Assembly: GCA_040391825.1 (NCBI GenBank)
Contig: JBEBXA010000002.1
Coordinates: 5,097 to 69,096, forward strand
Reading direction: 5' to 3'
DNA from: Pigmentiphaga sp.
Lineage (GTDB): Bacteria > Pseudomonadota > Gammaproteobacteria > Burkholderiales > Burkholderiaceae_B
DNA: 64,000 bases
Shown here: positions 9,545 through 64,000 of the stretch, one piece after another
Layout: each line of letters opens with the position of its first letter
How positions within the stretch are numbered: position 1 is the first letter of the stretch
Notes under the pieces: generated by a model
The model's input: only the letters and a program-made list of their open reading frames with translations
Database searches by the model: none
What the model was told of the DNA's origin: nothing
Position numbers and translations under genes: made by a program

Positions 9545-10738
<1,194 letters not shown>

Positions 10739-20467: not shown

Positions 20468-20547
20468 AAGAAAAGAGCCAGGTACTGATGAAACAAGTGC
20501 CAGGGCTAAGAGATCACGGGCAGTTGCAGCACGCGAGCCCTGGTTGC

Positions 20548-21183: not shown

Positions 21184-21280
21184 TGCTGTACTCCTTATCA
21201 ACGCCGCTCACTAGGTGCGGCGGTGACTGCATTCTGATGGCGAACTCGTTTCGGATCGGTTGCGAAACCGGCCTTAGCTG

Positions 21281-28775: not shown

Positions 28776-28835
28776 CGCCCGCTGCGGCCGCTCAGGCGGC
28801 CACAGCCTTTCCCGACCGCGGGCAGAGGAGAGACA

Positions 28836-29915: not shown

Positions 29916-29962
29916 GGCGTCACTGTCCCACTCAAGCATTCACCGCATCACCGAATCGAATC

Positions 29963-31168: not shown

Positions 31169-31203
31169 GATCAAGGCCCGGCCGGGGTGGCCAGCCACCC
31201 GCT

Positions 31204-38385: not shown

Positions 38386-39333
38386 ATGAAATTCATGATG
38401 AAAGCAAGTGCAGGGGCTGTCGCTTTAGCACTACTCGCCGCTTGCGGCGGTGGAGACGGTGACGGCGGTAGCAGCGGAGGCGGAGGCGACGCCAAGCTCA
38501 GCCAGGAACAAGTCGTATGGCTCGGTCATGAAAGCGCCTTCATCGGCACCGGCATACCCATGATTGCCAGAAGTCTCGCTGATGCCGCACTGAGCTTCCT
38601 CGACGAGGAAAGTCCTGCCGCTCAAAAAAATTGCGATCCCTTGAATGGAGAAACAGGTACAGTCTCCAGAACCTTTGCCGATGTAGACGAAGACGGTCTG
38701 CTCAGCGACGGCGACAAGGTGGAGCTGAATTTTGAGGCTTGCTACGACAGCGACGAAGACATTAGCCTGAACGGTCCGGTGACTGTCACGTTCGGTGGTT
38801 TAACCGGAGATATATTTGACTCATCAGTTGATTCCACAGCGAAGATTTCGTTGCTGATAAACAGCCTGGGACTGGATCAAACAGAAACTCTAAATGGCAC
38901 GATAGAGCTGGATTACTCTTACGATACTAAAGGTACCCTAGGTCGTGACGACGACGTAGAATCGCTAGCAGTTACCTCTGATAAAATTGCCATCACAAGC
39001 CAAGAGGACAGCAAGACTTACAGCGTCGACATCACTAATTATTCAAGCGCTGCTACTTGGGGCTACGACCACCTCCTGTATTCTCTGATCAAATACGGAG
39101 TAGCTGGTACCGACGCTCTGCTAGGTAGCTTCAATTATCAGGTAAGCACTTCCGCCCCTGTCACCGAACAAGACGATGGCACCATCACAGATGGCGAGTT
39201 CAAGGCTGTCGGTTCCGGTGAAACCATCACGACCCTCTTCATCACTGCTAGCGGTGGCGAGACCACGGTCAAGATCAGCTCGACCAGCGGCGTCACCGCC
39301 ACGATGGATTACGCGGAGTTCGACAACCTGTAA
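38386..39333 (+). CDS. Hypothetical acidic lipoprotein
   Basis: Lipobox LAAC followed by a Gly/Ser linker; D/E/S/T-rich beta-type sequence; DVDEDGLLSDGD Ca-binding-like loop. AAGGAA lies upstream of ATG 38386. Confidence 0.8.
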   Translation: MKFMMKASAGAVALALLAACGGGDGDGGSSGGGGDAKLSQEQVVWLGHESAFIGTGIPMIARSLADAALSFLDEESPAAQKNCDPLNGETGTVSRTFADVDEDGLLSDGDKVELNFEACYDSDEDISLNGPVTVTFGGLTGDIFDSSVDSTAKISLLINSLGLDQTETLNGTIELDYSYDTKGTLGRDDDVESLAVTSDKIAITSQEDSKTYSVDITNYSSAATWGYDHLLYSLIKYGVAGTDALLGSFNYQVSTSAPVTEQDDGTITDGEFKAVGSGETITTLFITASGGETTVKISSTSGVTATMDYAEFDNL

Positions 39334-48028: not shown

Positions 48029-48054
48029 AAGGGACTCCAAACGGAGTCCCTTTT
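48029..48054. terminator. Terminator after thyA
   Basis: AAGGGACTCC-aaac-GGAGTCCCTT followed by TT. Confidence 0.8.
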
Positions 48055-49058
48055 CAATAAACACCGGAGCTATCCGAGTCTGGGGCCAGCGCTATTCCAC
48101 CCATATTTTCCTCCAGGCGTTTACGCGCCGCCTTGGCATATTGCGTTGGGGTCAGCCCCGCCCATTTGGCAAATGCGCGGGCGAGCACTTTGTCTGACGC
48201 ATACCCCACTTGATCAGCAATGCGCGACAGCGGGAGGTTTTCGGTTTCAAGCAGGGTCGCCGCCAAGGTCATACGATGTGCAGTCAGATAATTGATCGGC
48301 GAATCATCCACGTAATCGCGAAACCGCTCACTAAAGCTGCTACGCGACATTCCTACCTCTTTGGCCAGCGATTCAATGCTCCATGTCTTGCACGGATAGC
48401 GATGGATGAGCATGATGGCGCGAGCAATGTTCGGATCGGTAAGGCCCCGTAGCCAACTGGCCTTAATGGCAGGGTGACTTGCCATGTATCCACGCAGAAT
48501 GTTCACCAGCAATAAGTCCGTCATCCGTCTGGCGGATAGCTTCCACCCTGGGCGCTGTTCAAGTGTTTCGTCGACCAGGGCATGCATCATCAGCGACAAA
48601 GTACTGGTAGCGGGAAGATCCGCCACCTTGACGTGAATCAGGCTGGGTAAGACCTTGATGACCGTGCTGCGGCTAAAGGCCGACAGCCACAAGTGCGCGG
48701 TGAAAAGCTCGATAGAACGCCCGGCCCCGCCGGCTTGCATCACAATGGGGGCATCCCCGTGGGCGCCCACGGTGTGGCGGGCAAGCAAGGGAGCAATAGG
48801 CTCTGGGATCAAACCTGGCGCGGAAGAGATCGAATGCCGTGTGCCATGAGGCAGCATAATCAGATCCAGCGGCGCGACCTCGACCGGCTTCAAACCTCCT
48901 TCCTCTATCCAGTACCCGCCCCCTACCGACATCCGGATAAGTGCGCCCTCGGTGCCCGCTGATGAGTACGCGAAGGGCGAACCCAGGACGAATCTGGCGG
49001 TGACTGCCTGATCCGCTTTGCAATTTGCCAATACTTCGCTAAGAACGTCCACGCGCAT
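48054..49058 (-). CDS. AraC-family regulator with Cupin_6 N-terminal domain
   Basis: DVLSEVL start; GLTDPNIARAIMLIH..WSIESLAKEVGMSRSSFSERF; VGYASD. Start moved to ATG 49058. Confidence 0.9.
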   Translation of the reverse strand: MRVDVLSEVLANCKADQAVTARFVLGSPFAYSSAGTEGALIRMSVGGGYWIEEGGLKPVEVAPLDLIMLPHGTRHSISSAPGLIPEPIAPLLARHTVGAHGDAPIVMQAGGAGRSIELFTAHLWLSAFSRSTVIKVLPSLIHVKVADLPATSTLSLMMHALVDETLEQRPGWKLSARRMTDLLLVNILRGYMASHPAIKASWLRGLTDPNIARAIMLIHRYPCKTWSIESLAKEVGMSRSSFSERFRDYVDDSPINYLTAHRMTLAATLLETENLPLSRIADQVGYASDKVLARAFAKWAGLTPTQYAKAARKRLEENMGGIALAPDSDSSGVY

Positions 49059-49230
49059 CCCCTTTGTGTGCATGGTAGCGAAACTGCGGCTTCGCGCAAC
49101 TTGCGGCGATGTCGGACGAATAGCGGTAAATCTTGGTTGACCAGGGGTTGAGGCCATATCGGCAATCGCCAACAATGCGAATCACCGCCGGACGACACAT
49201 CGGCTTTGTACAAGAAGCAGGCATCAATTC

Positions 49231-50400
49231 ATGAAAAACAATCTTGCAAACGGGGTCACCATCGTGGGCGCCGGTATCGCCGGATCCGCCTTGGCAGTTG
49301 CGCTCGCGTCCCGCGGCGTCGACGTCACGGTCATAGAAAAACAGAGCGAGTGGAAATTTCAAAGCTCGGGAATTTTCATATACAGCAACGGCCTGGTCGC
49401 TCTCTCCAAGGTAGGCGTGCTGCCGGCCATCTTGCAAGCGGGGTTTGTTGTAGCCGACGGCAAGAACATATACCTGGATCAAGACGGTGAACCGATTGTG
49501 GACGTGTTCTATCCTTCCGCGGAAAATGGCGCCGTACCTCCGGTCATCGGCATCAAACGAGCCGAGATGCATCGTGTACTGGCAAAAAAAATGCAGGATC
49601 TGGGCGTCCAGGTCAAACTGGGCACGACCGTTGAATCTTTTGAAGACCGGACGAACGAGGGGCCGGTGTTAGTGCGCTGCTCAGATGGGTCCACCATTAG
49701 CTGTGACTTGCTTGTCGGAGCGGACGGGGTCCGGTCGGACATTCGTACCCAGTGCTTCGGCCCGATTATCCCCACCTATACCGGATTCGGGGTATGGCGC
49801 AGTATTCATCGGCGCCCACCGGAACTGATTGCCAAACTGTTAATGATGGGAGTGGGCAAGCGGCTGGGTGCGATGCCGATTTCCCAAGATACCCTATACG
49901 TGTACGCAACCAGTAATGAGCCGGGTCGGCCCTGGTACGAACCCACTCAATGGCACGCCTTGATGCGCGAGAAGTTCGACGAGTTCCAAGGACCTGCGCG
50001 GCAATTCCTGGATGAACTCTCCCCTGCGACCGAAACCCTGTATACCTCGGTGGAAGAGGTCCATTTGCCTTTGCCCTGGCACAAAGGGCGCGTGCAACTT
50101 ATCGGCGATGCTGCGCATGCGTCTACCCCCTTCATGGGCCAAGGCGGGGCCATGGCTCTTGAAGATGCGGTCGTACTTGCCGAGATGCTGTTCGAAGACG
50201 CTGACATCAAGACCATCCTGGCCCGCTTCGGTAAACGCCGCTATCCCCGCTGTTCTTTCGTGCAAGATGTATCGCGTAAAGTTGGCGAGGCGGGCGGCCT
50301 GGAAAACGATGCAAGCTGCATCGTGCGCAATCAAAGTATGCGTGAAAACGCTCAAGCTGATGTCGACCGCTTTTATCGCATGATGCTGGCCGATTTTTGA
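49231..50400 (+). CDS. Group A FAD-dependent monooxygenase
   Basis: GAGIAG, GADGVRS, IGDAAHASTPFMGQGGAMALED. Confidence 0.9.
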   Translation: MKNNLANGVTIVGAGIAGSALAVALASRGVDVTVIEKQSEWKFQSSGIFIYSNGLVALSKVGVLPAILQAGFVVADGKNIYLDQDGEPIVDVFYPSAENGAVPPVIGIKRAEMHRVLAKKMQDLGVQVKLGTTVESFEDRTNEGPVLVRCSDGSTISCDLLVGADGVRSDIRTQCFGPIIPTYTGFGVWRSIHRRPPELIAKLLMMGVGKRLGAMPISQDTLYVYATSNEPGRPWYEPTQWHALMREKFDEFQGPARQFLDELSPATETLYTSVEEVHLPLPWHKGRVQLIGDAAHASTPFMGQGGAMALEDAVVLAEMLFEDADIKTILARFGKRRYPRCSFVQDVSRKVGEAGGLENDASCIVRNQSMRENAQADVDRFYRMMLADF

Positions 50401-50470
50401 TCGCTTATATAGGCCGCGCTTAGAGAGTTGCCGTCTATCGCACCAGTTGTGGCGGCAGTGTAAATACACA

Positions 50471-50512
50471 AAAAATACCCCCAACCCACGCGATGCGCTT
50501 GGGTTGGGGGTA
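50471..50512 (-). terminator. Terminator for the dienelactone hydrolase gene
   Basis: TACCCCCAACCCA / TGGGTTGGGGGTA stem preceded by an A-run. Confidence 0.75.
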
Positions 50513-50572
50513 CGGCCGGCTACCTAACCCAGATCAGCATTTCTGGTGGTCTGAGCTTAGGCAATAGCCGAT

Positions 50573-51241
50573 TTATCCCACGTGTTTGTGCAGGAATTCA
50601 AGGGTACGCGACCAAGCCAACTCGGCGCTGGCCGGATGGAAAGAGCCGCGTGCGCTGCAACTGAAGCCGTGACCTGCCGGGTAAATATGTACCGGCACGT
50701 CGGGCTGAGCGGCCCGGACCTTCTCCACTTCGCTCAAGGGAATGGAGTGGTCGGTCTCGCCGAAGTGAGCCATGGTGGGCACACGGGGACGCTCGTTCGC
50801 CAAGCCCGGAATGCCAGCGCCATAGTAGGGCACCGATGCCGAGAAACCATCCAGGCGCGACGCGGCGGCCCAGGCGATCGTGCCGCCCCAGCAATATCCG
50901 ATAATCGCGACATGCCCGGCTTCGCTAGCCACAGCGGCAGCGGCGGCCACGTCCTTCAACGCATTATCGAGCGAGGCCTGCTGCATGAAGACACGGCCCT
51001 TGGCGATATCGTCGGGCGTGTAGCCCAGCTCTACATTTGGTTCGACCCGGTCGAACAGCGCCGGAGCGATGGCCAGGTAGCCTTCTTCTGCATACCGGTC
51101 GCATACGCTGCGAATGTGCTCGTTGACGCCAAATATTTCCTGGCAAATGACGATGCCGCCGCGGGGCTTGCCGGCGGGATCTGCGCGATAGGCTGAGAGG
51201 CGTGTGCCGTCTGATGCGGTCAATTCGATCTGAGTACCCAT
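50573..51241 (-). CDS. Dienelactone hydrolase family protein
   Basis: QEIFGVN, GYCWGG nucleophile elbow, HFGETD, AGHGF. Start moved to ATG 51241. Confidence 0.92.
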   Translation of the reverse strand: MGTQIELTASDGTRLSAYRADPAGKPRGGIVICQEIFGVNEHIRSVCDRYAEEGYLAIAPALFDRVEPNVELGYTPDDIAKGRVFMQQASLDNALKDVAAAAAVASEAGHVAIIGYCWGGTIAWAAASRLDGFSASVPYYGAGIPGLANERPRVPTMAHFGETDHSIPLSEVEKVRAAQPDVPVHIYPAGHGFSCSARGSFHPASAELAWSRTLEFLHKHVG

Positions 51242-51543
51242 GATTCCTTTGGTATATCCGTAACCACTATGGAAAAGCTCCCGGCGCTGTGGATTGCCAC
51301 CAGGCCCTGTCCTTGTTTTATCAGAAATCGGGTGAACCGGCACCCCTTCCTGCCAACCAGGCCATTGCCCTGCAGCACAGCGGTCTCGCCCTAGAGTGTC
51401 CGACCATTTCTCCGCTGTGTCCAGCGCATGCGCCACCCACCATGCTCTTCGCAAACGCTGAGCGACCGGCAAGCGGTGGGCCGCTGACATGCCTTCATGC
51501 TAGATTGATGACCTCATTTGTTTCGCTCGCACTCCTACGCACC

Positions 51544-52116: not shown

Positions 52117-53169
52117 ATGGAGACACTCATGCCGGCCCTGGACGAGAACTGTACGATAGGTTTGCTTTCTTCATCGGGAAGGCGCTCTACCCGACGGCAA
52201 TTGCTAAGCGGTGCGGTAGCGGCGCTATGCCTGACGAGCGTGGGCGGAGTCTATGCTCAGGCTGGCGGCGCCACCTACCCCGACCACTTGATACGCATCA
52301 TCGTCCCCTACACACCGGGCAGCATCGGAGATCTGTTCATACGGCCCATCACGCAACAGATGGGCCAGCAATTGGGGCAGTCGGTCATCGTCGAAAATCG
52401 CCCCGGCGCAAGCCAGGCGATCGGGGCCGAATTGGCTGCGCAGGCCGCCCCTGACGGCTATACCTTGTTCATGGGCACCCAATCTGGCTTTGTGCTGAAT
52501 CGGGCGGCGCGTAAGCACTTGCCTTTCAATCCGGAAAAAGACTTCACTCCGATCACGATGCTCTTTACCGCCCCCATGTATATGTTCGTCAGCCCTAGCG
52601 TGCCGGCGAAATCAGTGAAAGAACTGATTGAACTGGCCCGAGCCAAACCCGGCTCACTGACGTTCGCTTCGATAGGCCCGGGAACTTCGTCGCATCTGGC
52701 CGGCGAACTGTTCAAGACCATGGCGGGTGTGGACATGCTGCATGTTCCCTACCGTGGCGGCCCCGACGCCACTACTGCAGTCGTCACCGGGCAGGTCGAC
52801 GTAATGTTCAACGGCGGCAACGCCCTCCCCCAGATGACCCGCGGCAAGGTACGTCCCCTGGCTTTCGGCAGCCTGAAGCGTTCGGACATCCTGCCGGAAC
52901 TACCCACTTTGGACGAATCCGGCCTACCGGGCTACGACGTTTCCCCATGGTTCGGGCTATTCGCGCCGGCCGGCACGCCGCCCGCCATCATCGCCAAGCT
53001 GAATGCCACGCTCATGCCTCTGCTCAAGTCAGAAGAAACACTGAAAAGAGGAAATACCTTGGGCTTGAACGTCAGCCCGACGACACCCGAAAAACTGGGT
53101 GCAGTCCTGAAGGCAGACTACCCTATCTGGGAAAAAATCATGCGCCAGGCGGGAATTCAGCCGGAGTAA
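52117..53169 (+). CDS. Bug/TctC substrate-binding protein
   Basis: TRRQLL leader, PYTPGSIGD, VENRPGAS, HVPYRGG. Exact start uncertain. Confidence 0.92.
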   Translation: METLMPALDENCTIGLLSSSGRRSTRRQLLSGAVAALCLTSVGGVYAQAGGATYPDHLIRIIVPYTPGSIGDLFIRPITQQMGQQLGQSVIVENRPGASQAIGAELAAQAAPDGYTLFMGTQSGFVLNRAARKHLPFNPEKDFTPITMLFTAPMYMFVSPSVPAKSVKELIELARAKPGSLTFASIGPGTSSHLAGELFKTMAGVDMLHVPYRGGPDATTAVVTGQVDVMFNGGNALPQMTRGKVRPLAFGSLKRSDILPELPTLDESGLPGYDVSPWFGLFAPAGTPPAIIAKLNATLMPLLKSEETLKRGNTLGLNVSPTTPEKLGAVLKADYPIWEKIMRQAGIQPE

Positions 53170-53294
53170 GAAAAGCGTATAACTTCCACCGAACCGCATT
53201 CGCCTGCTCGAGCGAACATCTCGCGATTAAACCGTCAAAGCCGCTCAAGGTTCTTGATGTGCGGATCTGACGGAGACTTCAGCAAGGGCTAACG

Positions 53295-54290
53295 CTATTT
53301 GACCCGGAAGCTTTCGCGTACACCTGCTTCATCCACCACTTTTCTCCAGCGAACGATCTCTGAACGGATAAAGTCATCGGTTTTGTCTGCATCCATCCAT
53401 TTGGCGTGAGCGCCTGTCTTGCCGAATTGTTCGATGATTGCCGGTTCGCTCAAAATCTTCTTCATCGTTTGACTGAGCTTGTCAACAATGGGCTTCGGCG
53501 TACCGGCAGGAGCAAGCAAGGCAAGCCATGCATAGGCAACGATGTCGGGAAAGCCCAGTTCGGCATAGGTAGGTACGTCGGGAAAAAGCGGCAGGCGCTT
53601 ATCTGACGTCACAGCAAGAGGTCTCAGCTTTCCAGCATTGATAAGCTGCATGACGGCGGGAAGGCTTTCGACACTGATGTCGGTATGTCCGGCGATAAGG
53701 TCAGCGACAGATTCGGCCGAACCTTTGTATGGCACCTTTATCGTTCGTATCCCTGCCTGCCATTGAAAGAGCTCGCCTACCAAATGAGGAATCCCGCCCA
53801 CCGTCGGTACGGCAAACCGCACCTGACCCGGGTTCTTCTTAGCGTAGGAAAGCAGTTCGGTAGCCGTTTTGTACGGGGTGCTGTTGTTGGTCAACATCGC
53901 CATTTCATAATGGCCGACATAGGAAATGGCGGAAAAATCCTTGACGGGATCAAACCCTATATCGTCGAAGAAAGGCAGGGCCGTCGCCAAAGGACCTGAG
54001 GGGCTTAACAGCAAGGTGTAGCCATCGTTCTTCGCTTTGGCCGCATGGCTCGTTCCTATCATTCCGCCGGCGCCGGGACGGTTGACGACCACGAAGGTTT
54101 GCCCCAATTCGGTTGTCAGGCGGGCAGCTACGATACGGGTAATATTATCGCTCGCCCCACCCGGGGGATAAGCGGAGATTATGCGCACCGAGCGTTCAGG
54201 CCAAGAGTCGGCGCTAGCTTGTACGGCGAACGTACAGGCCACACCAAGAAACGTCAGGAAACCAGTCATCCATCGCAAATTTTTCATCAC
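53295..54290 (-). CDS. Bug/TctC substrate-binding protein
   Basis: YPPGGASD, VVNRPGAGG, KVPYKGS, PDVPTY. Confidence 0.92.
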   Translation of the reverse strand: MMKNLRWMTGFLTFLGVACTFAVQASADSWPERSVRIISAYPPGGASDNITRIVAARLTTELGQTFVVVNRPGAGGMIGTSHAAKAKNDGYTLLLSPSGPLATALPFFDDIGFDPVKDFSAISYVGHYEMAMLTNNSTPYKTATELLSYAKKNPGQVRFAVPTVGGIPHLVGELFQWQAGIRTIKVPYKGSAESVADLIAGHTDISVESLPAVMQLINAGKLRPLAVTSDKRLPLFPDVPTYAELGFPDIVAYAWLALLAPAGTPKPIVDKLSQTMKKILSEPAIIEQFGKTGAHAKWMDADKTDDFIRSEIVRWRKVVDEAGVRESFRVK

Positions 54291-54321
54291 GGTCCTCGTT
54301 GATGTAAATGCAGTACTTGAT

Positions 54322-55182
54322 TTATTTGAGACGCATCAATCGCAAGGCGTTTTCGGATAGCACCTTGTCAATCACGCCGGGACGCCAGGGCCAGGACTTG
54401 TACGCCTGGATCATTTGAGGAAAGGGCTTAGAGGGATAATTGCTGCCGAACAGCGCGCGGTCCGACAGAAAATTATTGGCAAGCTTGAAATACTCGCCCG
54501 ACCCCGGAATTTCCGGCGCCATATACAAGTCGGGCGATAACCACACATTGCTGCAATGGAAAGCAACGCCGATCATTTCCATTACCCAGGGGTAACCCGC
54601 ATGCGCAACATGGATGTCCAGCTTGGGGAAAGCCGTAGCCAAATCGTAAATCTGAGTTGGATTACTTAGCTCATACGGACGTCCCGTAGTCTTCTGCAAG
54701 ACCCCGCTAAGCGTGATGCTGACTGGCACATTACGCTGCTGACATGCTTCGTAAATCGGATAGAGCCGTATGTCGGTCACCAGCTTGATATCCGGGTTTA
54801 GACTGATCGTGGGCTCTATGCAAATGCCGCGAAAACCCGCATGCGCGAGGCAACTATCCATCTCGGCCAACCACTGCTCAGGGCCTTGGCTCAGATCCAG
54901 CCCTGCCCAGGCCACAAAGCGGTCAGGATGTGCGTCCAGCAGCTCTTTTATTTCTTTGTTGGAAATAATGCCGAAAGGCGGCGGCGATTGGCGGCCCATC
55001 AATACGCCGTATTGCATATCGACGGCATCCATCTCCTCTAACAGCAATGGTAAGGAAGCTTGTCTCGCGGACTCTGCGCGCGGATAGTCGGGGTGGCGAG
55101 TTTGCTCCACCCCGCCCGGTTGAAACAATACTGATGACTTGAGGCTAGGAATGGGCGGACGCAGCCTCATATCGACTACCAT
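54322..55182 (-). CDS. Amidohydrolase_2 family protein with atypical metal motifs
   Basis: TIM-barrel pattern (RFVAWAG, YPIYEAC..NVPV, HVAHAGYPW, NVWLSPD, LFGSNYP). DMRLRPP replaces DxHxH. Confidence 0.82.
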   Translation of the reverse strand: MVVDMRLRPPIPSLKSSVLFQPGGVEQTRHPDYPRAESARQASLPLLLEEMDAVDMQYGVLMGRQSPPPFGIISNKEIKELLDAHPDRFVAWAGLDLSQGPEQWLAEMDSCLAHAGFRGICIEPTISLNPDIKLVTDIRLYPIYEACQQRNVPVSITLSGVLQKTTGRPYELSNPTQIYDLATAFPKLDIHVAHAGYPWVMEMIGVAFHCSNVWLSPDLYMAPEIPGSGEYFKLANNFLSDRALFGSNYPSKPFPQMIQAYKSWPWRPGVIDKVLSENALRLMRLK

Positions 55183-55320
55183 GATTTGTCTCCAAAAACT
55201 TCAATGAAAGGTGCGGAGCGGCGTGCTCCTTGAATAACAGCGACTACGCCGGAACAGCGGCAAGAAGTGTCTGGATGCTATCGACGGCCATTTAGCCTGT
55301 CTAATATTTAGTACATTGAT

Positions 55321-55343
55321 ATCGATATGTTTTAAGTATCGAT
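55321..55343. promoter_or_regulatory. LysR recognition site (T-N11-A)
   Basis: ATCGATA-N9-TATCGAT. The inner ATAT-N7-GTAT is close to the BenM/CatM ATAC-N7-GTAT box and lies about 80 bp upstream of the LysR start. Confidence 0.65.
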
Positions 55344-55422
55344 TGCAAGCAAACAGAAAGACCTGGCACATTTTTAAGCACGGACGCTAAAGAAATGGCG
55401 GACTAATCTGGGAGAGGGTCAG

Positions 55423-56352
55423 ATGGAACTTCGTCACCTGCGCTATTTCATAGCTGTCGCGGAAGAGCTGCATATGGGGCGCGCCGCGCAGCGGCTGCAT
55501 ATATCCCAGCCGCCTCTAAGTCAGCAGATCGCTGCCCTTGAGGCCGAGATCGGCACGCAACTTTTCATTCGAAGAGGCCGGGGCATACATCTAAGCGCCG
55601 CGGGCAGCGCCTTTCTTGAACATGCGCGCAGTACGCTCGCAATGTCCGAACAGGCGGTGCAAGTGGCACGCGAAGTAGGGCGCGGCGAAACCGGCCACCT
55701 TTCAGTCGCTTACGTCAGCTCGCTGGCCTACACCTATCTGCCGCACATCCTCAAACAGTTCCAGCTTGAGTACCCTGCGGTGCAGTTGGAATTGCGCGAA
55801 ATGAGTGTGGTGGACCAGGTGCGCGCTCTGCAAGAGCGCAGCCTGCAAGTGGGTGTCTTGCGCGGCCCCCTCGACAACCAAGGCATAGATCTCAACGAGT
55901 TGATATCCGAACCCTTTGTGCTGGCCCTACCCGTGCAACATCGCCTGGCGGCGCATACCGTGCTGCCTATTGCCGCCCTTCGCGAGGAAGCCTTTATCGT
56001 GCACCTGAGGGGAGTGTTTTATGCTCCCCTGCTCGAGCTATGCCGACAAGTGGGTTTCGAACCCAAGGTAGTGCAAGAGGTTACTCAAATACACGCTGCC
56101 GTCGGTTTGGTCGGTGCTGGCGTAGGGGTAGCGTTGGTTCCCGCCTCGGCACGTGCCTTGAGAATGGAAGGCGTCACGTTCAGAGAAATCGACAACACAA
56201 CCATCACCACCAGTATTCTGGCAGCCACGCCTGCGGGAGATACCTCGCCATTAACTCGGAACTTTTATACGGTTGCAATGCGCGCCGTCAAAGAAGCAAG
56301 CAAATCGCTACTGTATGGTGCTGCTGAACCCCGGGAAGAAGTTTGCGTATAA
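55423..56352 (+). CDS. LysR-family regulator (BenM/CatM/HcaR-like)
   Basis: MELRHLRYFIAVAEELHMGRAAQRLHISQPPLSQQI; GVGVALVP. Confidence 0.95.
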   Translation: MELRHLRYFIAVAEELHMGRAAQRLHISQPPLSQQIAALEAEIGTQLFIRRGRGIHLSAAGSAFLEHARSTLAMSEQAVQVAREVGRGETGHLSVAYVSSLAYTYLPHILKQFQLEYPAVQLELREMSVVDQVRALQERSLQVGVLRGPLDNQGIDLNELISEPFVLALPVQHRLAAHTVLPIAALREEAFIVHLRGVFYAPLLELCRQVGFEPKVVQEVTQIHAAVGLVGAGVGVALVPASARALRMEGVTFREIDNTTITTSILAATPAGDTSPLTRNFYTVAMRAVKEASKSLLYGAAEPREEVCV

Positions 56353-56403
56353 ACGGCTGAGCGTGATCAGCCCAATGATGTATCGACGCAAAACAAGCTG
56401 CAG

Positions 56404-57717
56404 CTAAACAGGGGGAAGCGGAGCAAAGCGGGACAGCAGCTTCCGCAAGCCCATCGGATCCTCATGCAGTCTCAGCGCCTGGTTTACCCACTGAAGATCG
56501 GCACTGTCTCCCAAGACCCGACGGGCCTTGTCCAGCAGTTGCAGCTCGTCGTAAGGCAGGGCGGGATCACCCGGGCTGTTTTCCACCAGAATTTCCTGCC
56601 GCCTGCCCCCAGCCTGTACGCATAAGCGGGCCGGCCAGCTACGCGGGTAATACGAATCCAGCGCCGGATCTGCGTAAATGCGGATGCTCTGAGACAAGGC
56701 CTGCACAGCCTGGCTGCGGGGAGGAACTTCCCGCGCCACATCGTCAAGCGCAGTTGGCGCAAGCGCGGCCAGCGCCAACTGCCAGCGGGCGCTGACCATA
56801 CTCGCCAAACGGCTCGCGCAAGCGGGTTCACGATCTATCATGCTGCTATAAGCAGCAGGCACGCCCAGCTCTATGAATTCGATTTTTTCCGGATCCAGGC
56901 CGCCAGCAATCAGGCTGCGCATACCGTGGATGGCAGCCAGCACCTGCTTGGCCGCACAATGCGGCTTGATGCTCAATTGTTCGATAACGGCGCTGTTGCC
57001 GGCGACTACCTCAGGCGCCAACTCAGGCACGCCCGTAGCGCGCAGCCAAGTTGGATTGAGAATAGAGACGTCGCCATCAAAACTATCCGCAGCAGCCAAG
57101 GCGGAGAGACAGCCCGCGCGCACCGCATTGCCGAACAAAAGCCAACGACCGGGACGCGACCCCGAACTCTTGCCTATCACACGCGGAGTTTGCGCCAGCG
57201 CCAAAGCCAGGGCATGCGCCATGCGCTCTGGGTTCAGGCCCAATAAGCGCCCCGTGGCAGCGGCCGCACCAACCGGCGCCACCACATAGCTTGGCCAGAT
57301 TCCAGCCCCAAGCAAGCCCGCTCCGCCCAGGGCCTGCGCAATGCGGACGGCAATCTCTTGGCCGACAAACACAGCGTCCAGAAAATGATCGGCAGCAAGC
57401 GGACCAGCGCCATGGGCCACCATGCCCAGCGCTGCCGGCAGCACGATGGCCGTAGCAGTGACGGCAGTAGGCCGATGAATATCATCTATTTCGGTCAAAC
57501 GCATCGTCGCGGCATTGCGGGCAACGGCCCCCAAGGCGGAACTATCGTTGCGCCCCAAAAACGCCTGAAGCGCCCGGCCTTCGGCAGTGCGAGCGCCTGC
57601 CATCAGCGCCAGCACGCCATCGGCCGCATGTAACATCAAGCGGTCGCGATACGCCGCCCCCGATGCACAGGCGGCCAGGTGTGCCAGTTCGTCCAGCGTA
57701 AGCGTGGACACCATCAA
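56404..57717 (-). CDS. MmgE/PrpD family protein (degenerate motifs)
   Basis: DGVLALMAG, EIDDIH, VLPAAL, GAAAATGRLLGL, IKPHC, GDPALP. Confidence 0.82.
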   Translation of the reverse strand: MMVSTLTLDELAHLAACASGAAYRDRLMLHAADGVLALMAGARTAEGRALQAFLGRNDSSALGAVARNAATMRLTEIDDIHRPTAVTATAIVLPAALGMVAHGAGPLAADHFLDAVFVGQEIAVRIAQALGGAGLLGAGIWPSYVVAPVGAAAATGRLLGLNPERMAHALALALAQTPRVIGKSSGSRPGRWLLFGNAVRAGCLSALAAADSFDGDVSILNPTWLRATGVPELAPEVVAGNSAVIEQLSIKPHCAAKQVLAAIHGMRSLIAGGLDPEKIEFIELGVPAAYSSMIDREPACASRLASMVSARWQLALAALAPTALDDVAREVPPRSQAVQALSQSIRIYADPALDSYYPRSWPARLCVQAGGRRQEILVENSPGDPALPYDELQLLDKARRVLGDSADLQWVNQALRLHEDPMGLRKLLSRFAPLPPV

Positions 57718-58787
57718 GGACTCAACACTTCAGCCCTGCCACCCATGGCGGTGAGCAAAGGCAAACTACGGTGCCAGGCCCCGCCCGGAAAATCCAACTG
57801 CGCCGACAGCACGGCCAAGCTACCTGGAGGCAAGGAGGTCCACGACGCTCTGTCGCTTGCGGCAACCACCGCCAGCGGCGCCATACCGACGCTGGCTTCC
57901 AGCGTCCAGCGCGACAAGCTGCCTGGTGCTCGGGCCAGCACATCGCTTTGCACGCCGCCAGTGGTAATGCCTTGCGCCATCTCCAGAAACCAGTCTTGCG
58001 CGACTGTCCAGTCGGACGGGACAGCGACGCTGGACCGGCTTTCAGCCACCCTGACCCATGCCCCCTTATAGGCGACCGAAATTTCGATGGCGTATTGCTC
58101 GCCCAAGACCGCGTCGCCTTCCATGCGCACCAAGGTAGCGTCTTGGACTAGATTGGGCGCTATCCTTTGCAAGACTTCTTCCGCACCGGCCAAACGCGCG
58201 GAAAGCTCTACCGCGGCCAGTACCTCAGAGGCCCTACGAGCACGCTCGGGTATCGCCCGCAACGCGCGGGCGCCTATGGCGCTTGCCTGACGAGCAAGCG
58301 TCAACTCCGCCTGATCACAGGGTTGGCGCAAACCGGAAAAAATCTCGCTAGCATCTACCAGGCGTTCGCCTACCCCCTGCTTTAGCAGCGGCAACATGAC
58401 CGAAGATGGCACCTCATCCAAGCCGACAATGCCAATCTTGCCCTCGGTAACATGCTCTTCGATAAAGGACAGCGCGCCCGCACCAAGGCGCGGAGCGGCT
58501 ATCACCTGACTCAGGTGCGACACCTCGCGAATCCAGGGATAAACGCGCTTGGTCAAGGCTGCCAGCAATTGCGGCCTTCCTTCCGGCAAAACCACCAATA
58601 GCGCTTCGCTCCAATAGGGAACGAAATTACATAGCCAATGCACGGCAGCCGGTTGGATGAAAGAGGTGTAGGCGAACACAGCGCCTATGCCTTGCTTGCG
58701 CATTGCTTCCTGCAAACGACCTACCCGGCCATCCAAGACTGCAACCGGGACTTCTTCGCGCGACCAACTGATGAGTCCACGACGCAT
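57714..58787 (-). CDS. M24/creatinase-fold protein lacking metal ligands
   Basis: MRRGLISW start; creatinase-N-like RVGRLQEAMRKQGIGAVF..WLCNFVPYW; C-terminal domain without the D/D/H/E/E set. Confidence 0.72.
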   Translation of the reverse strand: MRRGLISWSREEVPVAVLDGRVGRLQEAMRKQGIGAVFAYTSFIQPAAVHWLCNFVPYWSEALLVVLPEGRPQLLAALTKRVYPWIREVSHLSQVIAAPRLGAGALSFIEEHVTEGKIGIVGLDEVPSSVMLPLLKQGVGERLVDASEIFSGLRQPCDQAELTLARQASAIGARALRAIPERARRASEVLAAVELSARLAGAEEVLQRIAPNLVQDATLVRMEGDAVLGEQYAIEISVAYKGAWVRVAESRSSVAVPSDWTVAQDWFLEMAQGITTGGVQSDVLARAPGSLSRWTLEASVGMAPLAVVAASDRASWTSLPPGSLAVLSAQLDFPGGAWHRSLPLLTAMGGRAEVLSP

Positions 58788-58822
58788 GATTCAAGCTCCT
58801 AGAAACCCGCAACGGCAGCTGC

Positions 58823-59926
58823 TCATAGCGGCACCGTAAATAGTTCTCGCGGCGTGCGCGTCAGCACCCGACACCCCTCTTGCGTCACCCGCACCGTATC
58901 GCCCAAGACGATGTAGCCGGCCACCGGATGATAGGTGTTCGGGTGAACGATCAAGGTCATGTCCGGCTCCAGTACCAGATCCACGTCTTCCAGTACATGC
59001 GGGCCATCGACGAACAAGCCGACACCATGGCCACGTACCCGTGTGTATTCCGACGTGATGTATTCGGCCAGGCCATGCCTGCGAAAAACATCGTTTTCAG
59101 CGCGGGCGATATCGCCATGGGTAGCGCCCGGTTTAACGGCATCGATCCCTGCTTCCAGCGCTTCGAGGTATATCGCATGCGCCTGCAGCTGTGCCTCGGA
59201 TGGCGGCCCCATCACCAGCGTCCGGCATATTTGGGCGTAATAGCCGTCAAGGCAAGGCGTCAGTTCGGTGGTGACTAGATCACCTTTCGTTAAGCGGCGC
59301 TCGGTAGGTGGGCGCATGCCACGCAACTCCGGCCCGCCGGACCCCATGATCATGAAATTTTCCGGACAAGCTTGAGAGCGGAACCAGGCCTCGGTGTCGG
59401 CGATCAGTTCGTACTCGCGCCGTCCCACCTGCGCGGCGGCACGAAAAATTTCGTAACCCTCGTCTGCCAGCTTGACCGCGCGTTCTACCGCGTCGGCCTC
59501 GGCCGTGGATTTACGCACCATCAGTTGATCAAGCATGGCAGTGGTGCGCGCCAAGCTTCCCCCCAACTCGCCTCGGCCCAAGCGCCAAGGCACTGCCGAA
59601 GACGGCGCCAAACCCACATTACGGGTAGTGGCGGACTTGAGCTCGGCCTCGACATAGTCGAGCAGAACCGGCGACCAATCGACATCCAATTGGGGTTGCT
59701 CCGCGGCGATACGTGCGGCCTCGACCGGCGTCTCGACAATCAGGCGCACCCTGCCGTCGAGAGGAATCAAGGCAATCGCCACACCTTCCATCGGGGTAAC
59801 GTCGATGGCATATCTCAAGTAATCGCTGCGCCAGCCGTTGCCCGCCAGCACCAGCAGATCAAGGCCTGCGTCGGACATGGCCCGACGCAGGCGCGTCATG
59901 CGTTCATCACGTAGCGCAGCACTCAT
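58823..59926 (-). CDS. M24 (Xaa-Pro peptidase/creatinase) fold protein with altered active site
   Basis: Creatinase-N domain, VRKSTAE, GDLVTTELTP..GYYAQICRT, RGHGVGL, HPN, GDTVRVT. ATG 59926 overlaps the stop of the upstream gene. Confidence 0.85.
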   Translation of the reverse strand: MSAALRDERMTRLRRAMSDAGLDLLVLAGNGWRSDYLRYAIDVTPMEGVAIALIPLDGRVRLIVETPVEAARIAAEQPQLDVDWSPVLLDYVEAELKSATTRNVGLAPSSAVPWRLGRGELGGSLARTTAMLDQLMVRKSTAEADAVERAVKLADEGYEIFRAAAQVGRREYELIADTEAWFRSQACPENFMIMGSGGPELRGMRPPTERRLTKGDLVTTELTPCLDGYYAQICRTLVMGPPSEAQLQAHAIYLEALEAGIDAVKPGATHGDIARAENDVFRRHGLAEYITSEYTRVRGHGVGLFVDGPHVLEDVDLVLEPDMTLIVHPNTYHPVAGYIVLGDTVRVTQEGCRVLTRTPRELFTVPL

Positions 59927-61665
59927 GATGACAGTTCCTCCTCTTGTTCGACGGCCCAACCGTAGTCTCTGGCCGCGCCTTCCGAGGTAACGTAGCCGTC
60001 ACGCAGGTCTTCTCGGATAGCTTGTGGCGAGCGTGCTTGCGGATCTCCATAGCCTCCGCCTCCCGCAGTCCAAAACGCCACGGTATCGCCCGCCGACACC
60101 ACGATATTGCTTTCCTTGGTCACCGAGCGCTCGGTGCCGTCCAGGCGGCGAATCCTGGCGGCGTTGCTGCGCCCGTTTTTGCCGCCCTCCAATCCCCAAG
60201 GCGGCTGGGTAATGCGTTCAAGGTTGACGTTGACTGAACTACGCTCGAGCGCGCGGTAGCGCAACTCGACGCCCAGACCTCCGCGGTTGCGGCCGGGGCC
60301 GCCGCTGTCTTCGCGCAGCTTGTGACATTCGACCAGAAAGGGGTAATGGATTTCCTGCAACTCTACCGGCGTATTGCGCACATCCCCCTGGCAGATGGAC
60401 ACAGAAGCCGACGCACCGTCCTCGCTTGATCTGCCGCCCCAGCCACCGCCAAAGATATTCATCAACACATAGCGCGCGCCGGTATCTTCCCGGTTGCCGT
60501 AGAAGGAGCATCCGCCCATGTCCCCCTTATGCGCCGCGGGTATCACACCCGGCAAAGCAGACGCCAAGGCACACAGGATGGTGTCGATGACGGTGGGCAA
60601 GGCAATGCTCCACAAACCCAGCGCAGCAGGCGGCCGGGCGTTGAGCATGGTCCCCTCGGGAGAGATCAGGGTCAGGGCGCGAAAGCCGCCTTCATTGACC
60701 GGGGCATGGGGCATGGTCAGGCATTTGAACGCCACCCGCGCCGCCGACAAGCCTCCAGAGAAACCTGAGTTCAGCGGTCCGGGCACCTGCTCGTTCATTT
60801 CCGAGTAGTCGATCGTAAGATCCGAGCCGCTCACCACCACCGTCACCTTGACGCGCAGCGGCACATCCAGCCGGCGGCCATCGCTGTCAAGCCAGGTTTC
60901 CGCCGTATAGCGACCATCGGGCATTTTGGCGACGACTGCACGGGCCTCTGCTTCCGCCATGTCCCAGGATGCGGCGATGCAGGCATCGACGGTCTGTACC
61001 GAGTGACGGGAAAGCAGTTCTGACAACCTGCGTTCGCCCAAGTGGCAGGAAGCGATCTGGGCACGCAAATCGCCCAGCGACGCATCCGGAAAGCGGATGT
61101 TATCGGTAATCATCTGCCAGACGCCGTCATTGCGCTTACCGGCATCGTAGATCTTGATCGAGCGCATCTGAATGCCTTCGTGGAAGATCTCTGTGGTCTG
61201 CACGTTGCCAAAACCGGTGCGCAGGCCACCCACATCGACCCAATGAGCACGGTTGGCGGCAAATGCCACGACCTTGCCTTCGTGGAAGCATGGCGTATAG
61301 ACAACCACGTTATTCAAATGCTGCCCGCATACACCGGCGTGGTTCATGATGATGACGTCGCCGGGTGCGAAGCCATCCAAGCCGAAACGATCGATACCAT
61401 CCTGCACGGCGATGCCCAGGTCGGCCAGGAAAATCGGCAAGCCTCCCGCGTTCTGGCAGATCATCCGGCCCTGGGTATCGATCAGCCCGCAGCAGAAATC
61501 GCGCACTTCGTAGATCATCATGTTGTAGGCGGATTTGCACAGTGCGAGCGCCATTTCATCCGCATACGCAAGTAGTGAATTCGTCACCACTTCCAACGTT
61601 ATGGGATTCACCTGGACGCCGCTGGCGCCGGGCGGATTCGTTGTTTGCTGCGTGATCGGGTTCAA
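59923..61665 (-). CDS. Hydantoinase B / 5-oxoprolinase subunit
   Basis: TTG 61665 after AAGGAG. ITLEVV, RDFCCG, AHWVDVGG, EGIQMR, GGGWGG, NTPVE, DSGGPGRNRGG, TAGGGGYGDP. Confidence 0.93.
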   Translation of the reverse strand: MNPITQQTTNPPGASGVQVNPITLEVVTNSLLAYADEMALALCKSAYNMMIYEVRDFCCGLIDTQGRMICQNAGGLPIFLADLGIAVQDGIDRFGLDGFAPGDVIIMNHAGVCGQHLNNVVVYTPCFHEGKVVAFAANRAHWVDVGGLRTGFGNVQTTEIFHEGIQMRSIKIYDAGKRNDGVWQMITDNIRFPDASLGDLRAQIASCHLGERRLSELLSRHSVQTVDACIAASWDMAEAEARAVVAKMPDGRYTAETWLDSDGRRLDVPLRVKVTVVVSGSDLTIDYSEMNEQVPGPLNSGFSGGLSAARVAFKCLTMPHAPVNEGGFRALTLISPEGTMLNARPPAALGLWSIALPTVIDTILCALASALPGVIPAAHKGDMGGCSFYGNREDTGARYVLMNIFGGGWGGRSSEDGASASVSICQGDVRNTPVELQEIHYPFLVECHKLREDSGGPGRNRGGLGVELRYRALERSSVNVNLERITQPPWGLEGGKNGRSNAARIRRLDGTERSVTKESNIVVSAGDTVAFWTAGGGGYGDPQARSPQAIREDLRDGYVTSEGAARDYGWAVEQEEELSS

Positions 61666-61675
61666 TCCGTTCTCC

Positions 61676-63730
61676 TTAGGCCAGCTTGATGGAAATGACG
61701 ATGTGTCCGTGCTCAGTGACACGAGCACGATCGCCAGGAAACACCACGGTCGTGGAGTTAGGCTCTTCGATGACCGCCGGCCCCTCAAAGGTAAAGCCGG
61801 GCGCCAAGCTGGGCCGCCACAAAATTCTTGCGTCCACCGGGTGCTCGGGATCTTCGTAAACGACCTTGCGCATCTGCTCGGGACGGGGTGCTTCCGGCAC
61901 AAAGGGCTCAGACAAGAAAGCTTCGATGCTGGTGCCTTCGCGCGCCAGGCTGACGGTCAAACGCAGGTTGGCGACCTCTATCGATTCGCCCACCGCGGCA
62001 TGTCCATAGCGCATGTCGTGCAAGGCATCAAAAGTGGCCCGCACGGTTTCGTCGCCATTGGTCAAAGAGGTCAAGCTGGGCAAAGGCACGGGAATACTGT
62101 GTTCTTGCCCGCGATAGCGCAAATCAGCAAAGTATTCGAATACGGCTTTTTCCGCATCCAGATCGTCTTCGGCCATCTGACGACGCGCCGAATCAGCCAG
62201 TTCGTCGAAAGCGGCATGAACCCGTTGCGCGTCCAGCTTGCCCAGCTCACCGACAAAAGTGCGGACCAGATCATGCCGCCAAGGCGCCAACAACATGCCA
62301 AGCGCGGAAAAATTCCCCGGAAGCTTTGGAATAACCAGGGTGGGAATATAGATTTCCTTGCACAGTGCAGCCGCGTGGACAGGACCCGCGCCGCCGAAAG
62401 CTATCATCACCGCATCGCGGGGATCCACGCCCTTGCGAACCGAGACGGCTCGCACCGCTAGAGCCATTGAGGAATCAGCAATACGCACCACGCCTGCCGC
62501 AGCTTCAACCGTCGACAGGGAAAGCGGATCTGCAATTTGCTTTGCCATCGCGGCTACCGCACCTGCAGTATCGAGGTTCATGCCGCCGCCCAGAAAGCGG
62601 TTGGCATTCAAACGACCCAACAGCAGATTGGCATCGGTAACTGTTGGCTCCTGCCCGCCACGGCCATAGCACACCGGCCCGGGTGCGGCGCCCGCGCTCT
62701 GAGGACCGACATGCAAGCCGCCACTGCCATCGCGCCACGCAATACTGCCGCCGCCCGCCCCGACTTCGACAATCGACACCACCGGTAACTGCATAGGCTG
62801 CCCGGTGGAATAGCCGCCGATGTAATAGCCCTCTTCAATTGCCGGCACACCATCGATGATCAAGGTCGCCTTGGCGGTCGTACCACCCATGTCGAAACCT
62901 ATGGCTTGCGGCATGTTCAACAGCTTTGCAACGTAACCGGCGCCTATCATGCCGGCGACAGGGCCTGATTCCATCATGGAAACCGGTTCGATCGCTGCGT
63001 GCTTGAGCGACATGCTGCCGCCGTTGGAACGCATGATCTGGATAGCGCCGCCAAAACCGCTGCTGCCCAGATGCGACTCCAGGCTTTGCAGATAGCTGCG
63101 CACACGCGGCCCGACATAGGCGTTGAGGACAGTGGTGGAAGTACGTTCGTACTCGCGGAATTCGCGCAGGATCTCGTGCGACAAAGTCACGAACAAACTC
63201 GGAAATGCTTCGCGCAAGATCCGCCCCGCGATGATTTCATGAGCAGGATTGGCATAAGAATGCAGGAAGCACACCGCCACCGATTCAATTTTGTCGTCCA
63301 TCAACTTTTGGCCCAGCGCCAGCACGCCGGCCTCATCGATAGGCGTCAACACTTCGCCTTTCGCATTGAGCCGTTCCTTGACTTCGAAGCGAAGCCGACG
63401 CGGCACCAGGGGCTGGGGCCGCTTGAAATTGATGTCGAAGGCATCCGGCCGATTGCCTCGGCCGATTTCGTAGACGTCGCGAAAGCCCTCTGTAGTCAAC
63501 AATGCAGTGGCTGCACCCTTGCATTCCAATACGGTGTTGATCGCCATCGTTGAACCATGCAGGAACTCATCGAGTTCGCTCAAGCGGACATCCGCCAGTT
63601 CAAATGCGCTTGCCACCCCGGCAGTCGGATCGGCAGCTTGGGTCAGTGTTTTTGAAAACACCAGCTCACCGTCCCGGTATCCGACCAAATCGGTAAACGT
63701 GCCGCCGATATCCACACCGATAGAATTCAC
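61676..63730 (-). CDS. Hydantoinase A / 5-oxoprolinase ATP-binding subunit
   Basis: GVDIGGTFTD, HGST, REYERTSTT, ESGPVAG, FDMGGTT, GAGGGSIA, SAGAAPGPVCYG, FGGAGPVH. Confidence 0.95.
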   Translation of the reverse strand: MNSIGVDIGGTFTDLVGYRDGELVFSKTLTQAADPTAGVASAFELADVRLSELDEFLHGSTMAINTVLECKGAATALLTTEGFRDVYEIGRGNRPDAFDINFKRPQPLVPRRLRFEVKERLNAKGEVLTPIDEAGVLALGQKLMDDKIESVAVCFLHSYANPAHEIIAGRILREAFPSLFVTLSHEILREFREYERTSTTVLNAYVGPRVRSYLQSLESHLGSSGFGGAIQIMRSNGGSMSLKHAAIEPVSMMESGPVAGMIGAGYVAKLLNMPQAIGFDMGGTTAKATLIIDGVPAIEEGYYIGGYSTGQPMQLPVVSIVEVGAGGGSIAWRDGSGGLHVGPQSAGAAPGPVCYGRGGQEPTVTDANLLLGRLNANRFLGGGMNLDTAGAVAAMAKQIADPLSLSTVEAAAGVVRIADSSMALAVRAVSVRKGVDPRDAVMIAFGGAGPVHAAALCKEIYIPTLVIPKLPGNFSALGMLLAPWRHDLVRTFVGELGKLDAQRVHAAFDELADSARRQMAEDDLDAEKAVFEYFADLRYRGQEHSIPVPLPSLTSLTNGDETVRATFDALHDMRYGHAAVGESIEVANLRLTVSLAREGTSIEAFLSEPFVPEAPRPEQMRKVVYEDPEHPVDARILWRPSLAPGFTFEGPAVIEEPNSTTVVFPGDRARVTEHGHIVISIKLA

Positions 63731-63748
63731 TATTTTTCTCCAGAATCT

Positions 63749-64000
63749 TTATTCGATCTTGATGCCCGTGCGCTCGATCAGCTCTTTGAATTTGGCTGAT
63801 TCGGCACGCACGAATGAAGTGGTTTCAGCCGGCCCGAGATCGGTCGCCACATGGCCGATCTGTGCCAGTTTTTCCTGAATGGCGGGGTCCTTCAGCACGG
63901 CATGGACTTCACTGCCCAGCCGCGCAATGATTTGGGGGTCGGTGCCTTTGGGCGCCGCCAATACCCACCAGTTCGCAAACAAGAGCTGGGGAAACCCAGC
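63749..64000 (-). CDS. Bug/TctC substrate-binding protein, C-terminal part (5' end beyond the window)
   Basis: WWVLAAPKGTDPQIIARL..KFKELIERTGIKIE, a typical Bug C-terminus. Confidence 0.85.
   Translation of the reverse strand, partial: AGFPQLLFANWWVLAAPKGTDPQIIARLGSEVHAVLKDPAIQEKLAQIGHVATDLGPAETTSFVRAESAKFKELIERTGIKIE

Follow-up and report, generated by a model that had tools for sequence, protein, structure and literature searches.

The 64,000-nucleotide stretch of Pigmentiphaga sp. DNA analyzed here (assembly GCA_040391825.1, contig JBEBXA010000002.1, positions 5,097 to 69,096; hereafter the window) ends in a tightly packed run of minus-strand genes that encode a Bug binding protein, the two subunits of a hydantoinase-like enzyme (HyuA and HyuB, together HyuAB), two proteins of the M24 fold (M24a and M24b, together M24ab) and a protein of the MmgE/PrpD family. 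An earlier note on the window, made from the sequence alone, had placed these six genes and four neighbors together in a candidate catabolic pathway. The open reading frames of the window were listed and then scanned against Pfam, and the junctions between genes were read from the sequence; the gene positions and family names of that note agree with Pfam for all nine complete open reading frames. The first visible gene of the operon (BugA, 63749..64000, minus strand) runs past the end of the window, which contains its C-terminal 83 codons, and its sequence clusters with Bug (TctC/Bug) proteins. After a spacing of 18 base pairs (bp) comes HyuA (61676..63730, minus strand; 684 amino acids; Pfam domains Hydant_A_N, Hydantoinase_A and Hydant_A_C), and after a gap of 10 bp HyuB (59923..61665, minus strand, in an open reading frame that extends to 61902; 580 amino acids; Hydantoinase_B, 521 bits), which starts at a TTG codon at 61665 preceded by GGAGA. 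HyuB and M24a (58823..59926, minus strand, in an open reading frame that extends to 59959; 367 amino acids; Peptidase_M24, PF00557, 113 bits) overlap in an ATGA, M24a starting at the ATG at 59926 and not at the TTG at 59959. M24b (57714..58787, minus strand; 357 amino acids; Creatinase_N only) is separated from M24a by 35 bp that include AGGAG, and its TGA stop codon is overlapped by the TTGATG at the start of the last gene of the operon, which encodes the MmgE/PrpD-family protein (56404..57717, minus strand; PF03972, MmgE_PrpD_N, 71.6 bits; PF19305, MmgE_PrpD_C, 48 bits), hereafter the PrpD-like protein. The two 4-bp overlaps and the remaining gaps of less than 40 bp are as described earlier, and the ATGA and TGATG overlaps indicate translational coupling.

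Exact-sequence look-ups of the window proteins gave no match, and the genomic context was taken from homologs instead. Relatives were sought in one genome per species, 80 loci were kept, gene families were mapped across these loci by tblastn, and co-occurrence was counted on the 48 loci that span 15 kb or more. The search with M24b found more than 700 homologs, mostly in Burkholderiales, and relatives are present in at least 163 species of soil, freshwater, sludge and host-associated Burkholderiales and of Alphaproteobacteria. The three genome contexts examined all have the order HyuA-HyuB-M24a-M24b-PrpD, to which two of the three add a leading Bug, a trailing Amidohydro_2-family gene, a convergent Bug and a divergent LysR. 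The canonical betaproteobacterial layout consists of a LysR gene pointing away from the operon, then Bug, HyuA, HyuB, M24a, M24b, PrpD and Amidohydro_2 in one direction, then a Bug gene that converges upon them. The module order recurs in Paraburkholderia, Ramlibacter, other Burkholderiales and Alphaproteobacteria, PrpD being placed convergently in the last of these, and this recurrence in more than fifty species, drawn from two classes of Proteobacteria, excludes the chance mosaic of genes that the earlier note had considered. M24a adjoins M24b in all 48 loci, and HyuAB lies beside the pair in 33. Of the loci with HyuAB, 21 of 33 have a PrpD-like gene versus none of the 15 without HyuAB (Fisher p = 1.9e-5), and 22 of 33 have an Amidohydro_2-family gene of the ACMSD type versus again none of the 15 (Fisher p = 7e-6), p-values that overstate independence because the loci are phylogenetically related, although the pattern still spans two classes. 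Identity between the BugA fragment and the Bug protein encoded directly upstream of HyuA in canonical loci is 55-67%, and the plus-strand gene BugC (52117..53169; TctC, PF03401, 207 bits) encodes a protein 50-62% identical to that of the convergent Bug gene that closes canonical betaproteobacterial loci on their 3' side. The conserved unit is therefore BugA-HyuA-HyuB-M24a-M24b-PrpD-like (56404 to beyond 64000, minus strand) together with the convergent BugC. The neighborhood comparison thus bears out the proposal that the HyuA-HyuB-M24a-M24b-PrpD core and its Bug proteins are a conserved, co-inherited unit; of the three Bug proteins that had been assigned to the pathway, BugA and BugC belong to it and BugB does not.

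Between the PrpD-like gene and BugC, in the slot where relatives carry the ACMSD-type decarboxylase, positions 53295-56352 are occupied by an independent three-gene cassette that is unrelated to the Hyu/M24 module. Its LysR gene (55423..56352, plus strand; HTH_1 and LysR_substrate) converges with the PrpD-like gene and diverges, across a 240-bp spacer that forms the divergent control region (55183..55422), from an Amidohydro_2-family gene (PF04909; 54322..55182, minus strand; BB4693 type) and BugB (53295..54290, minus strand; TctC, PF03401, 239 bits), which is the layout that had been described for them. The spacer contains an imperfect palindrome at 55315-55348 (inverted repeat TTGATATCGATA / TATCGATTGCAA) and a single weak sigma-70-like match, which does not exceed the yield of shuffled sequence; the scan for promoters and terminators likewise gave nothing better than shuffles, a search of Rfam gave no match, and a search for RNA-seq runs found none. 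None of the 80 related loci contains an ortholog of the window LysR, Amidohydro_2 or BugB. Identity is approximately 30% between this LysR and the one that diverges from the operon in relatives, no Bug protein of the related loci exceeds 38% identity to BugB over near-full-length matches, and the best structural match of the Amidohydro_2 protein is PDB entry 3irs (1e-43), the uncharacterized Bordetella protein BB4693. The same trio in the same arrangement stands on a metagenome contig (L086), where LysR, Amidohydro_2 and Bug are 71%, 80% and 70% identical to those of the window and no Hyu, M24 or PrpD gene was found within 10 kb; the Amidohydro_2 protein of this contig is the nearest relative of the window one. 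The earlier note had read all ten genes as one pathway controlled from the internal LysR site. The ten genes are contiguous with short gaps, and since relatives also have an Amidohydro_2-family gene after PrpD, that of the window could be a functional replacement for it; however, the window protein is BB4693-like and not ACMSD-like, with only 20% identity to the canonical one, its remoter relatives adjoin genes for flavin adenine dinucleotide (FAD) oxidoreductases and not Hyu/M24 genes, and with the orthologs absent from all 80 loci and the trio standing alone in L086, the amidohydrolase, the LysR and BugB fall outside the conserved unit and a single ten-gene pathway is unlikely. Inferences from gene neighborhoods thus call for caution, three adjacent and plausible genes having proved to be an unrelated cassette. 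No ACMSD-type Amidohydro_2 gene was found anywhere in the window, nor was a LysR of the conserved type, to which the window LysR is only approximately 29% identical; the conserved LysR may lie just beyond the window end, upstream of BugA.

As a single sequence, the PrpD-like protein matches the PDB at only 3e-5, but a profile of its family matches IRG1 of B. subtilis (8e-28), cis-aconitate decarboxylase (CAD; 1e-21), iminodisuccinate (IDS) epimerase (3e-18) and the 2-methylcitrate dehydratase PrpD (8e-14) over almost the full length, and all of these share both MmgE/PrpD domains with the module protein. The assignment to the MmgE/PrpD family made in the earlier note therefore stands, but by profile the nearest relative would be IRG1/cis-aconitate decarboxylase and not the dehydratases or the iminodisuccinate epimerase that had been named there. 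The Amidohydro_2 protein encoded after PrpD in relatives matches PDB entry 2dvt (1e-26) and ACMSD (2e-25), which places it in the group of ACMSD and gamma-resorcylate decarboxylase, and it is 64-75% identical across classes. No NCBIfam model matches the PrpD-like protein, and NCBIfam supplies no name for M24b or either Amidohydro_2 protein.

M24a matches prolidase (3q6d, 7e-29), creatinase (1chm, 5.5e-18) and the ectoine hydrolase DoeA (9e-8), but it does not have the Asp-Asp-His-Glu-Glu metal ligands that are standard for M24 peptidases. The corresponding residues are E221, Q232, H300, H328 and G342 (numbered in the 367-amino-acid protein), so that four of the five ligands are replaced, and this E-Q-H-H-G set is unchanged in 53 of 54 M24a sequences, the remaining one being gapped or aberrant at these positions. 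With its ligands replaced, M24a is predicted to be a non-peptidase member of M24, as had been proposed. M24b has no sequence match in the PDB, but its AlphaFold model (predicted local distance difference test score 90.4) can be superposed in Foldseek, along its entire length, on structures of prolidases and creatinases with template modeling scores of 0.72-0.77, which upholds the description of the two as paired M24-fold proteins. HHalign relates M24b to M24a as a distant paralog (95% probability, 17% identity). In M24b, the first two ligand positions are occupied by Glu and Arg, and the C-domain lacks any conserved His. The M24b family, with only 549 representatives among 1.84 billion clusters (E <= 1e-3), is a small orphan one; as modeled, M24b is a degenerate partner protein that has the complete pita-bread fold and is devoid of a metal site. 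The two proteins are conserved reciprocally: 28% of C-domain positions versus 9% of N-domain positions are invariant in M24a, and 19% of N-domain positions versus 11% of C-domain positions in M24b. In the dimers of creatinase and prolidase, the N-domain of one partner covers the active site of the other. From this capping and the reciprocal conservation, we infer that M24a and M24b pair into a heterodimer whose one active site is built from both.

The non-peptidase M24 enzymes creatinase, ectoine hydrolase (DoeA/EutD) and dimethylsulfoniopropionate lyase (DddP) share the Creatinase_N domain and the pita-bread fold with M24ab, have a lost or altered dinuclear site, and take part in breaking down small nitrogen compounds, not peptides, as is proposed here. 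M24ab differs from them in consisting of two distinct and always adjacent subunits, one with E-Q-H-H-G and the other without a site. To our knowledge, no characterized M24 enzyme is such a heteromer, and none of this kind was found in literature searches. If the operon instead served peptide-like breakdown, HyuAB would open pyroglutamyl or diketopiperazine rings and M24ab would be a dipeptidase of the Xaa-Pro type; prolidases are indeed the best matches of the M24 proteins by sequence and by fold, M24B enzymes specialize in tertiary amides, and an MslH-like epimerase of C-terminal residues is encoded beside M24ab in loci without HyuAB. This is distinctly unlikely given the replaced ligands of M24a and the absence of a metal site from M24b, and partners of the IRG1-like and ACMSD-like kinds, as well as transporters for carboxylates, are out of place in simple peptide breakdown. 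The second context of M24ab, without HyuAB, was seen in seven loci (L017, L019, L025, L028, L031, L036 and L044; for example, L025 8865-15513), where a divergent LysR gene is followed by M24a, M24b, Bug, a TauD-family dioxygenase, the CapA/MslH-like epimerase and a 2-hydroxyacid dehydrogenase. Both kinds of locus are present in two genomes, those of Ramlibacter aurantiacus AW1 and one metagenome-assembled genome of Burkholderiaceae (locus pairs L024 with L044 and L021 with L036).

The closest structures to HyuA are N-methylhydantoinase (7hk5, 1e-138) and caprolactamase (6yra, 1e-100), and the same two enzymes are closest to HyuB (7hk5, 5e-83; 6yra_B, 8e-71); the matches of HyuAB to carboxylases are far weaker than those to hydrolases. 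In this superfamily, the A subunit carries the ASKHA ATP-binding motifs DxGGTxxD, DxGGT and GxxPGP (PMC8453981), which in HyuA are DIGGTFTD at residue 7, DMGGT at residue 280 and GAAPGP at residue 347. Enzymes of the Hyd branch have two subunits of approximately 690 and 580 amino acids and no gamma subunit, and the HyuB homologs of carboxylases are approximately 100-200 amino acids longer (PMC5214803). HyuA and HyuB are adjacent and of Hyd-type lengths (684 and 580 amino acids), with no gene for a small gamma subunit nearby, and in agreement with the earlier note they are predicted to be an ATP-dependent hydrolase. N-methylhydantoinase (7hk5/9h03, in which A and B are fused) and CapAB (6yra) resemble HyuAB of the module in two-subunit architecture, in lengths and in matching over the full length, and the likeness to CapAB extends to the three ATP-binding motifs of HyuA and to three of the four CapB metal ligands in HyuB. 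The HyuB tetrad is D56-H116-N119-H141 versus Asp-His-Asp-His in CapB, and residue 119 (approximately 61309-61311 of the window) is Asn in 40 of 42 members of the clade and His in the other two; the Asp at this third ligand position is reported to be conserved in caprolactamase, hydantoinases, oxoprolinases and carboxylases (PMC8453981). HyuA is 57-79% identical in related loci; for HyuAB, identities are 57-85% among the loci in which M24ab follows it directly. Among 72,556 plasmids, HyuB is 64% identical to a Neorhizobium protein whose replicon also carries M24ab, and the other 925 plasmid records are below 60%, with approximately 41% for the best among the matches listed and approximately 35% for Agrobacterium. 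By these identities, the module-linked HyuAB proteins constitute a distinct and strongly constrained clade. In four alphaproteobacterial loci (L052, L053, L060 and L062), two different HyuAB pairs flank M24a-M24b-PrpD, which suggests either two ATP-dependent ring-opening steps or two substrates.

These comparisons bear on whether the operon is a divergent copy of a known route, be it for creatinine/N-methylhydantoin, 5-oxoproline, caprolactam/valerolactam, the opine lactams of Ti plasmids or indoleacetate (iad/iaa). N-methylhydantoinase is the best structural relative of HyuAB and creatinase is a relative of the M24 proteins; Ti plasmids have a HyuAB pair and mmgE near succinamopine-lactam genes (PMC6733357); and predicted 2-oxoindoleacetyl-CoA lactamases fall into the Hyd branch (PMC5214803). 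Such an origin is nevertheless very unlikely. The scores against the caprolactamase equivalogs of NCBIfam (479 for CapA and 289 for CapB) are far under the cut-off of 1000; the match of M24a to creatinase reaches only 5.5e-18; the plasmid HyuB proteins at or below approximately 41%, those of Agrobacterium included, are outside the module clade; no N-carbamoylsarcosine amidase, sarcosine oxidase, opine oxidase, or coenzyme A (CoA) ligase/mutase was found among the recurrent neighbors; and neither Hyu nor M24 enzymes take part in the aerobic iad pathway. Orthology to the opine-lactam genes of Ti plasmids was rejected on the identity of Agrobacterium HyuB given above, and the review examined for a link to creatinine or guanidine held nothing specific. 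An auxin route via oxindole-3-acetate, prompted by nearby genes for Rieske, amidase and thiamine pyrophosphate proteins, was likewise rejected on the enzymes of characterized aerobic iad, leaving only the anaerobic Hyd-type lactamase as a precedent (PMC5214803). Opine-lactam and oxindole clusters do provide precedent for Hyd-type opening of carboxylated lactams to substituted dicarboxylates (PMC6733357; PMC5214803), but they have no M24 pair, and the module has no opine oxidase or CoA-dependent enzymes; the HyuAB of the module is always linked to an M24 pair, which accompanies none of the characterized enzymes. That HyuAB might instead be an ATP-dependent carboxylase resembling acetone or acetophenone carboxylase, with the decarboxylase-family partners acting upon its product, is very improbable: the family includes carboxylases, the IRG1-like and ACMSD-like partners belong to (de)carboxylase families and caprolactamase itself needs bicarbonate (PMC8453981), but a gamma subunit gene is absent, the length of HyuB is that of the Hyd branch (PMC5214803) and the resemblance to hydrolases is much the stronger.

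Transport and neighboring genes in related loci give clues to the substrate. The transporters vary by lineage, namely Bug proteins, TAXI-TRAP systems in Alphaproteobacteria, the major facilitator superfamily in Paraburkholderia and an ATP-binding cassette system on the Neorhizobium replicon of the plasmid collection, and most of these types are associated with carboxylates. No TctA or TctB membrane subunit is encoded among the open reading frames of the window that were scanned. The window has at least five Bug/TctC genes (15420-16385, 31204-32235, 52117-53169, 53295-54290 and 63749-64000), the "orphan Bug" pattern of Alcaligenaceae-like genomes. Near the module there are molybdenum hydroxylases of the Ior type and the XDH type in 10 loci, Rieske oxygenases of the benzoate/anthranilate type in 11, TauD-family dioxygenases in 18, luciferase-like monooxygenases in seven and amidase-signature proteins in four alphaproteobacterial loci. 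This assortment suggests that M24ab receives a common nitrogen-containing carboxylate from diverse oxidations upstream, and an intermediate that is a stable cyclic amide would need HyuAB and the two decarboxylase-type enzymes in addition. A conserved protein of approximately 330-350 amino acids is encoded beside the Ior-type molybdenum hydroxylases in three loci (L039 2462-3628, L046 1329-2321 and L068 4853-5902). A cytochrome c was considered for it and rejected, as it has no CXXCH motif and no match in Pfam or NCBIfam; it may resemble 4,5-dihydroxyphthalate decarboxylases.

Taken with the enzyme families, these clues give an even chance that the conserved module serves the catabolism of an anionic (carboxylated) cyclic amide. 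From the chemistry characteristic of the families, we infer its catalytic steps, the M24 heterodimer and the class of substrate as follows. Bug proteins would capture the carboxylate in the periplasm, the TctAB membrane component being encoded elsewhere. HyuA would use ATP to activate the ring carbonyl, and HyuB would hydrolyze it, opening a stable ring of the lactam, hydantoin or pyridone type. The M24a/M24b heterodimer would then cleave a C-N bond of the opened product in an active site located in the C-domain of M24a and capped by the N-domain of M24b. The resulting substituted polycarboxylate of the succinate or aconitate type would be decarboxylated, or else epimerized or isomerized, by the IRG1-like protein, and in most relatives an ACMSD-type enzyme would add a further non-oxidative decarboxylation. 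Several points weigh against this scheme besides the relatedness of the loci noted above. In 15 of the 48 loci M24ab occurs and HyuAB does not, so M24ab is an enzyme in its own right and its placement after the ring-opening step is tentative. The Asn of HyuB stands where CapB has a metal-ligand Asp, and the chemistry of HyuB may differ accordingly from that of caprolactamase. The oxygenases beside the module vary by lineage, and their presence could be a coincidence in gene-dense catabolic regions. Finally, the window is without the otherwise strongly conserved decarboxylase, and the pathway here may be incomplete or altered.

With respect to the substrate itself, a polycarboxylate of a 2-oxo N-heterocycle (pyridone-like) is put forward tentatively as the first candidate. 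Somewhat less probable are a carboxylated hydantoin or cyclic ureide derived from oxidized purines or pyrimidines and, to the same degree, an N-substituted 5-oxoproline or opine-like lactam; an oxindole-type lactam is scarcely to be expected, and the remaining probability falls to something else. A more speculative and rather doubtful extension of the cyclic amide scheme is that the module effects ring cleavage independently of oxygen, with hydroxylated N-heteroaromatic compounds or very stable polycarboxylates of 2-oxo N-heterocycles being opened by means of ATP and not by ring-cleaving dioxygenases, and with the product passed to a new heteromeric, non-dinuclear M24 C-N hydrolase composed of a catalytic subunit and a pseudoenzyme cap; if true, this would provide the first function for an orphan protein family.

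The component families of the module are known, and so is the conventional logic of transport, ring opening, C-N cleavage and decarboxylation. What appears to be undescribed is the combination of genes, the heteromeric M24 protein with a remodeled site, the Asn variant of HyuB and the IRG1-like partner. The earlier note had not recognized the combination as a named pathway, and literature searches likewise found no characterized operon that matches it and no paper describing hydantoinase, PrpD/MmgE and M24 genes together; public annotations give the module proteins generic names only. Elucidation of the pathway would identify the substrate of a distinct and highly conserved clade of ATP-dependent cyclic amidases, enzymes of biocatalytic interest for the hydrolysis of stable lactams; it would show what is done by an orphan M24 family that apparently works as a pair of catalytic subunit and pseudo-subunit with a remodeled metal site, would add a new activity to the small MmgE/PrpD family, and would probably reveal the natural recycling of a common nitrogen heterocycle.

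Elsewhere in the window, the region just upstream of BugC (48054-51490) encodes an AraC-family regulator (Cupin_6), an FAD monooxygenase and a protein of the dienelactone hydrolase family; these genes are not conserved beside the module in other genomes. A plus-strand aromatic cluster of the gentisate type (27903-32235) encodes a protein of the fumarylacetoacetate hydrolase family, a bicupin resembling gentisate dioxygenase, an FAD-dependent aromatic hydroxylase and a Bug protein. At 9545-11796, a PobA-like FAD hydroxylase gene (FAD_binding_3, 348 bits) is divergent from an AraC gene, and the two look like a 4-hydroxybenzoate hydroxylase/PobR pair. A trimeric autotransporter adhesin of 1199 amino acids, which has an ESPR signal and a YadA head, stalk and anchor, precedes a protein with OmpA and BamE domains (3923-8421). 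Four open reading frames of coding-like composition have no match in Pfam: 19639-21237 (532 amino acids), 36984-38144 (386), 38386-39333 (315) and 32939-33763 (274). The organism from which the window derives has been seen in insect metagenome runs.

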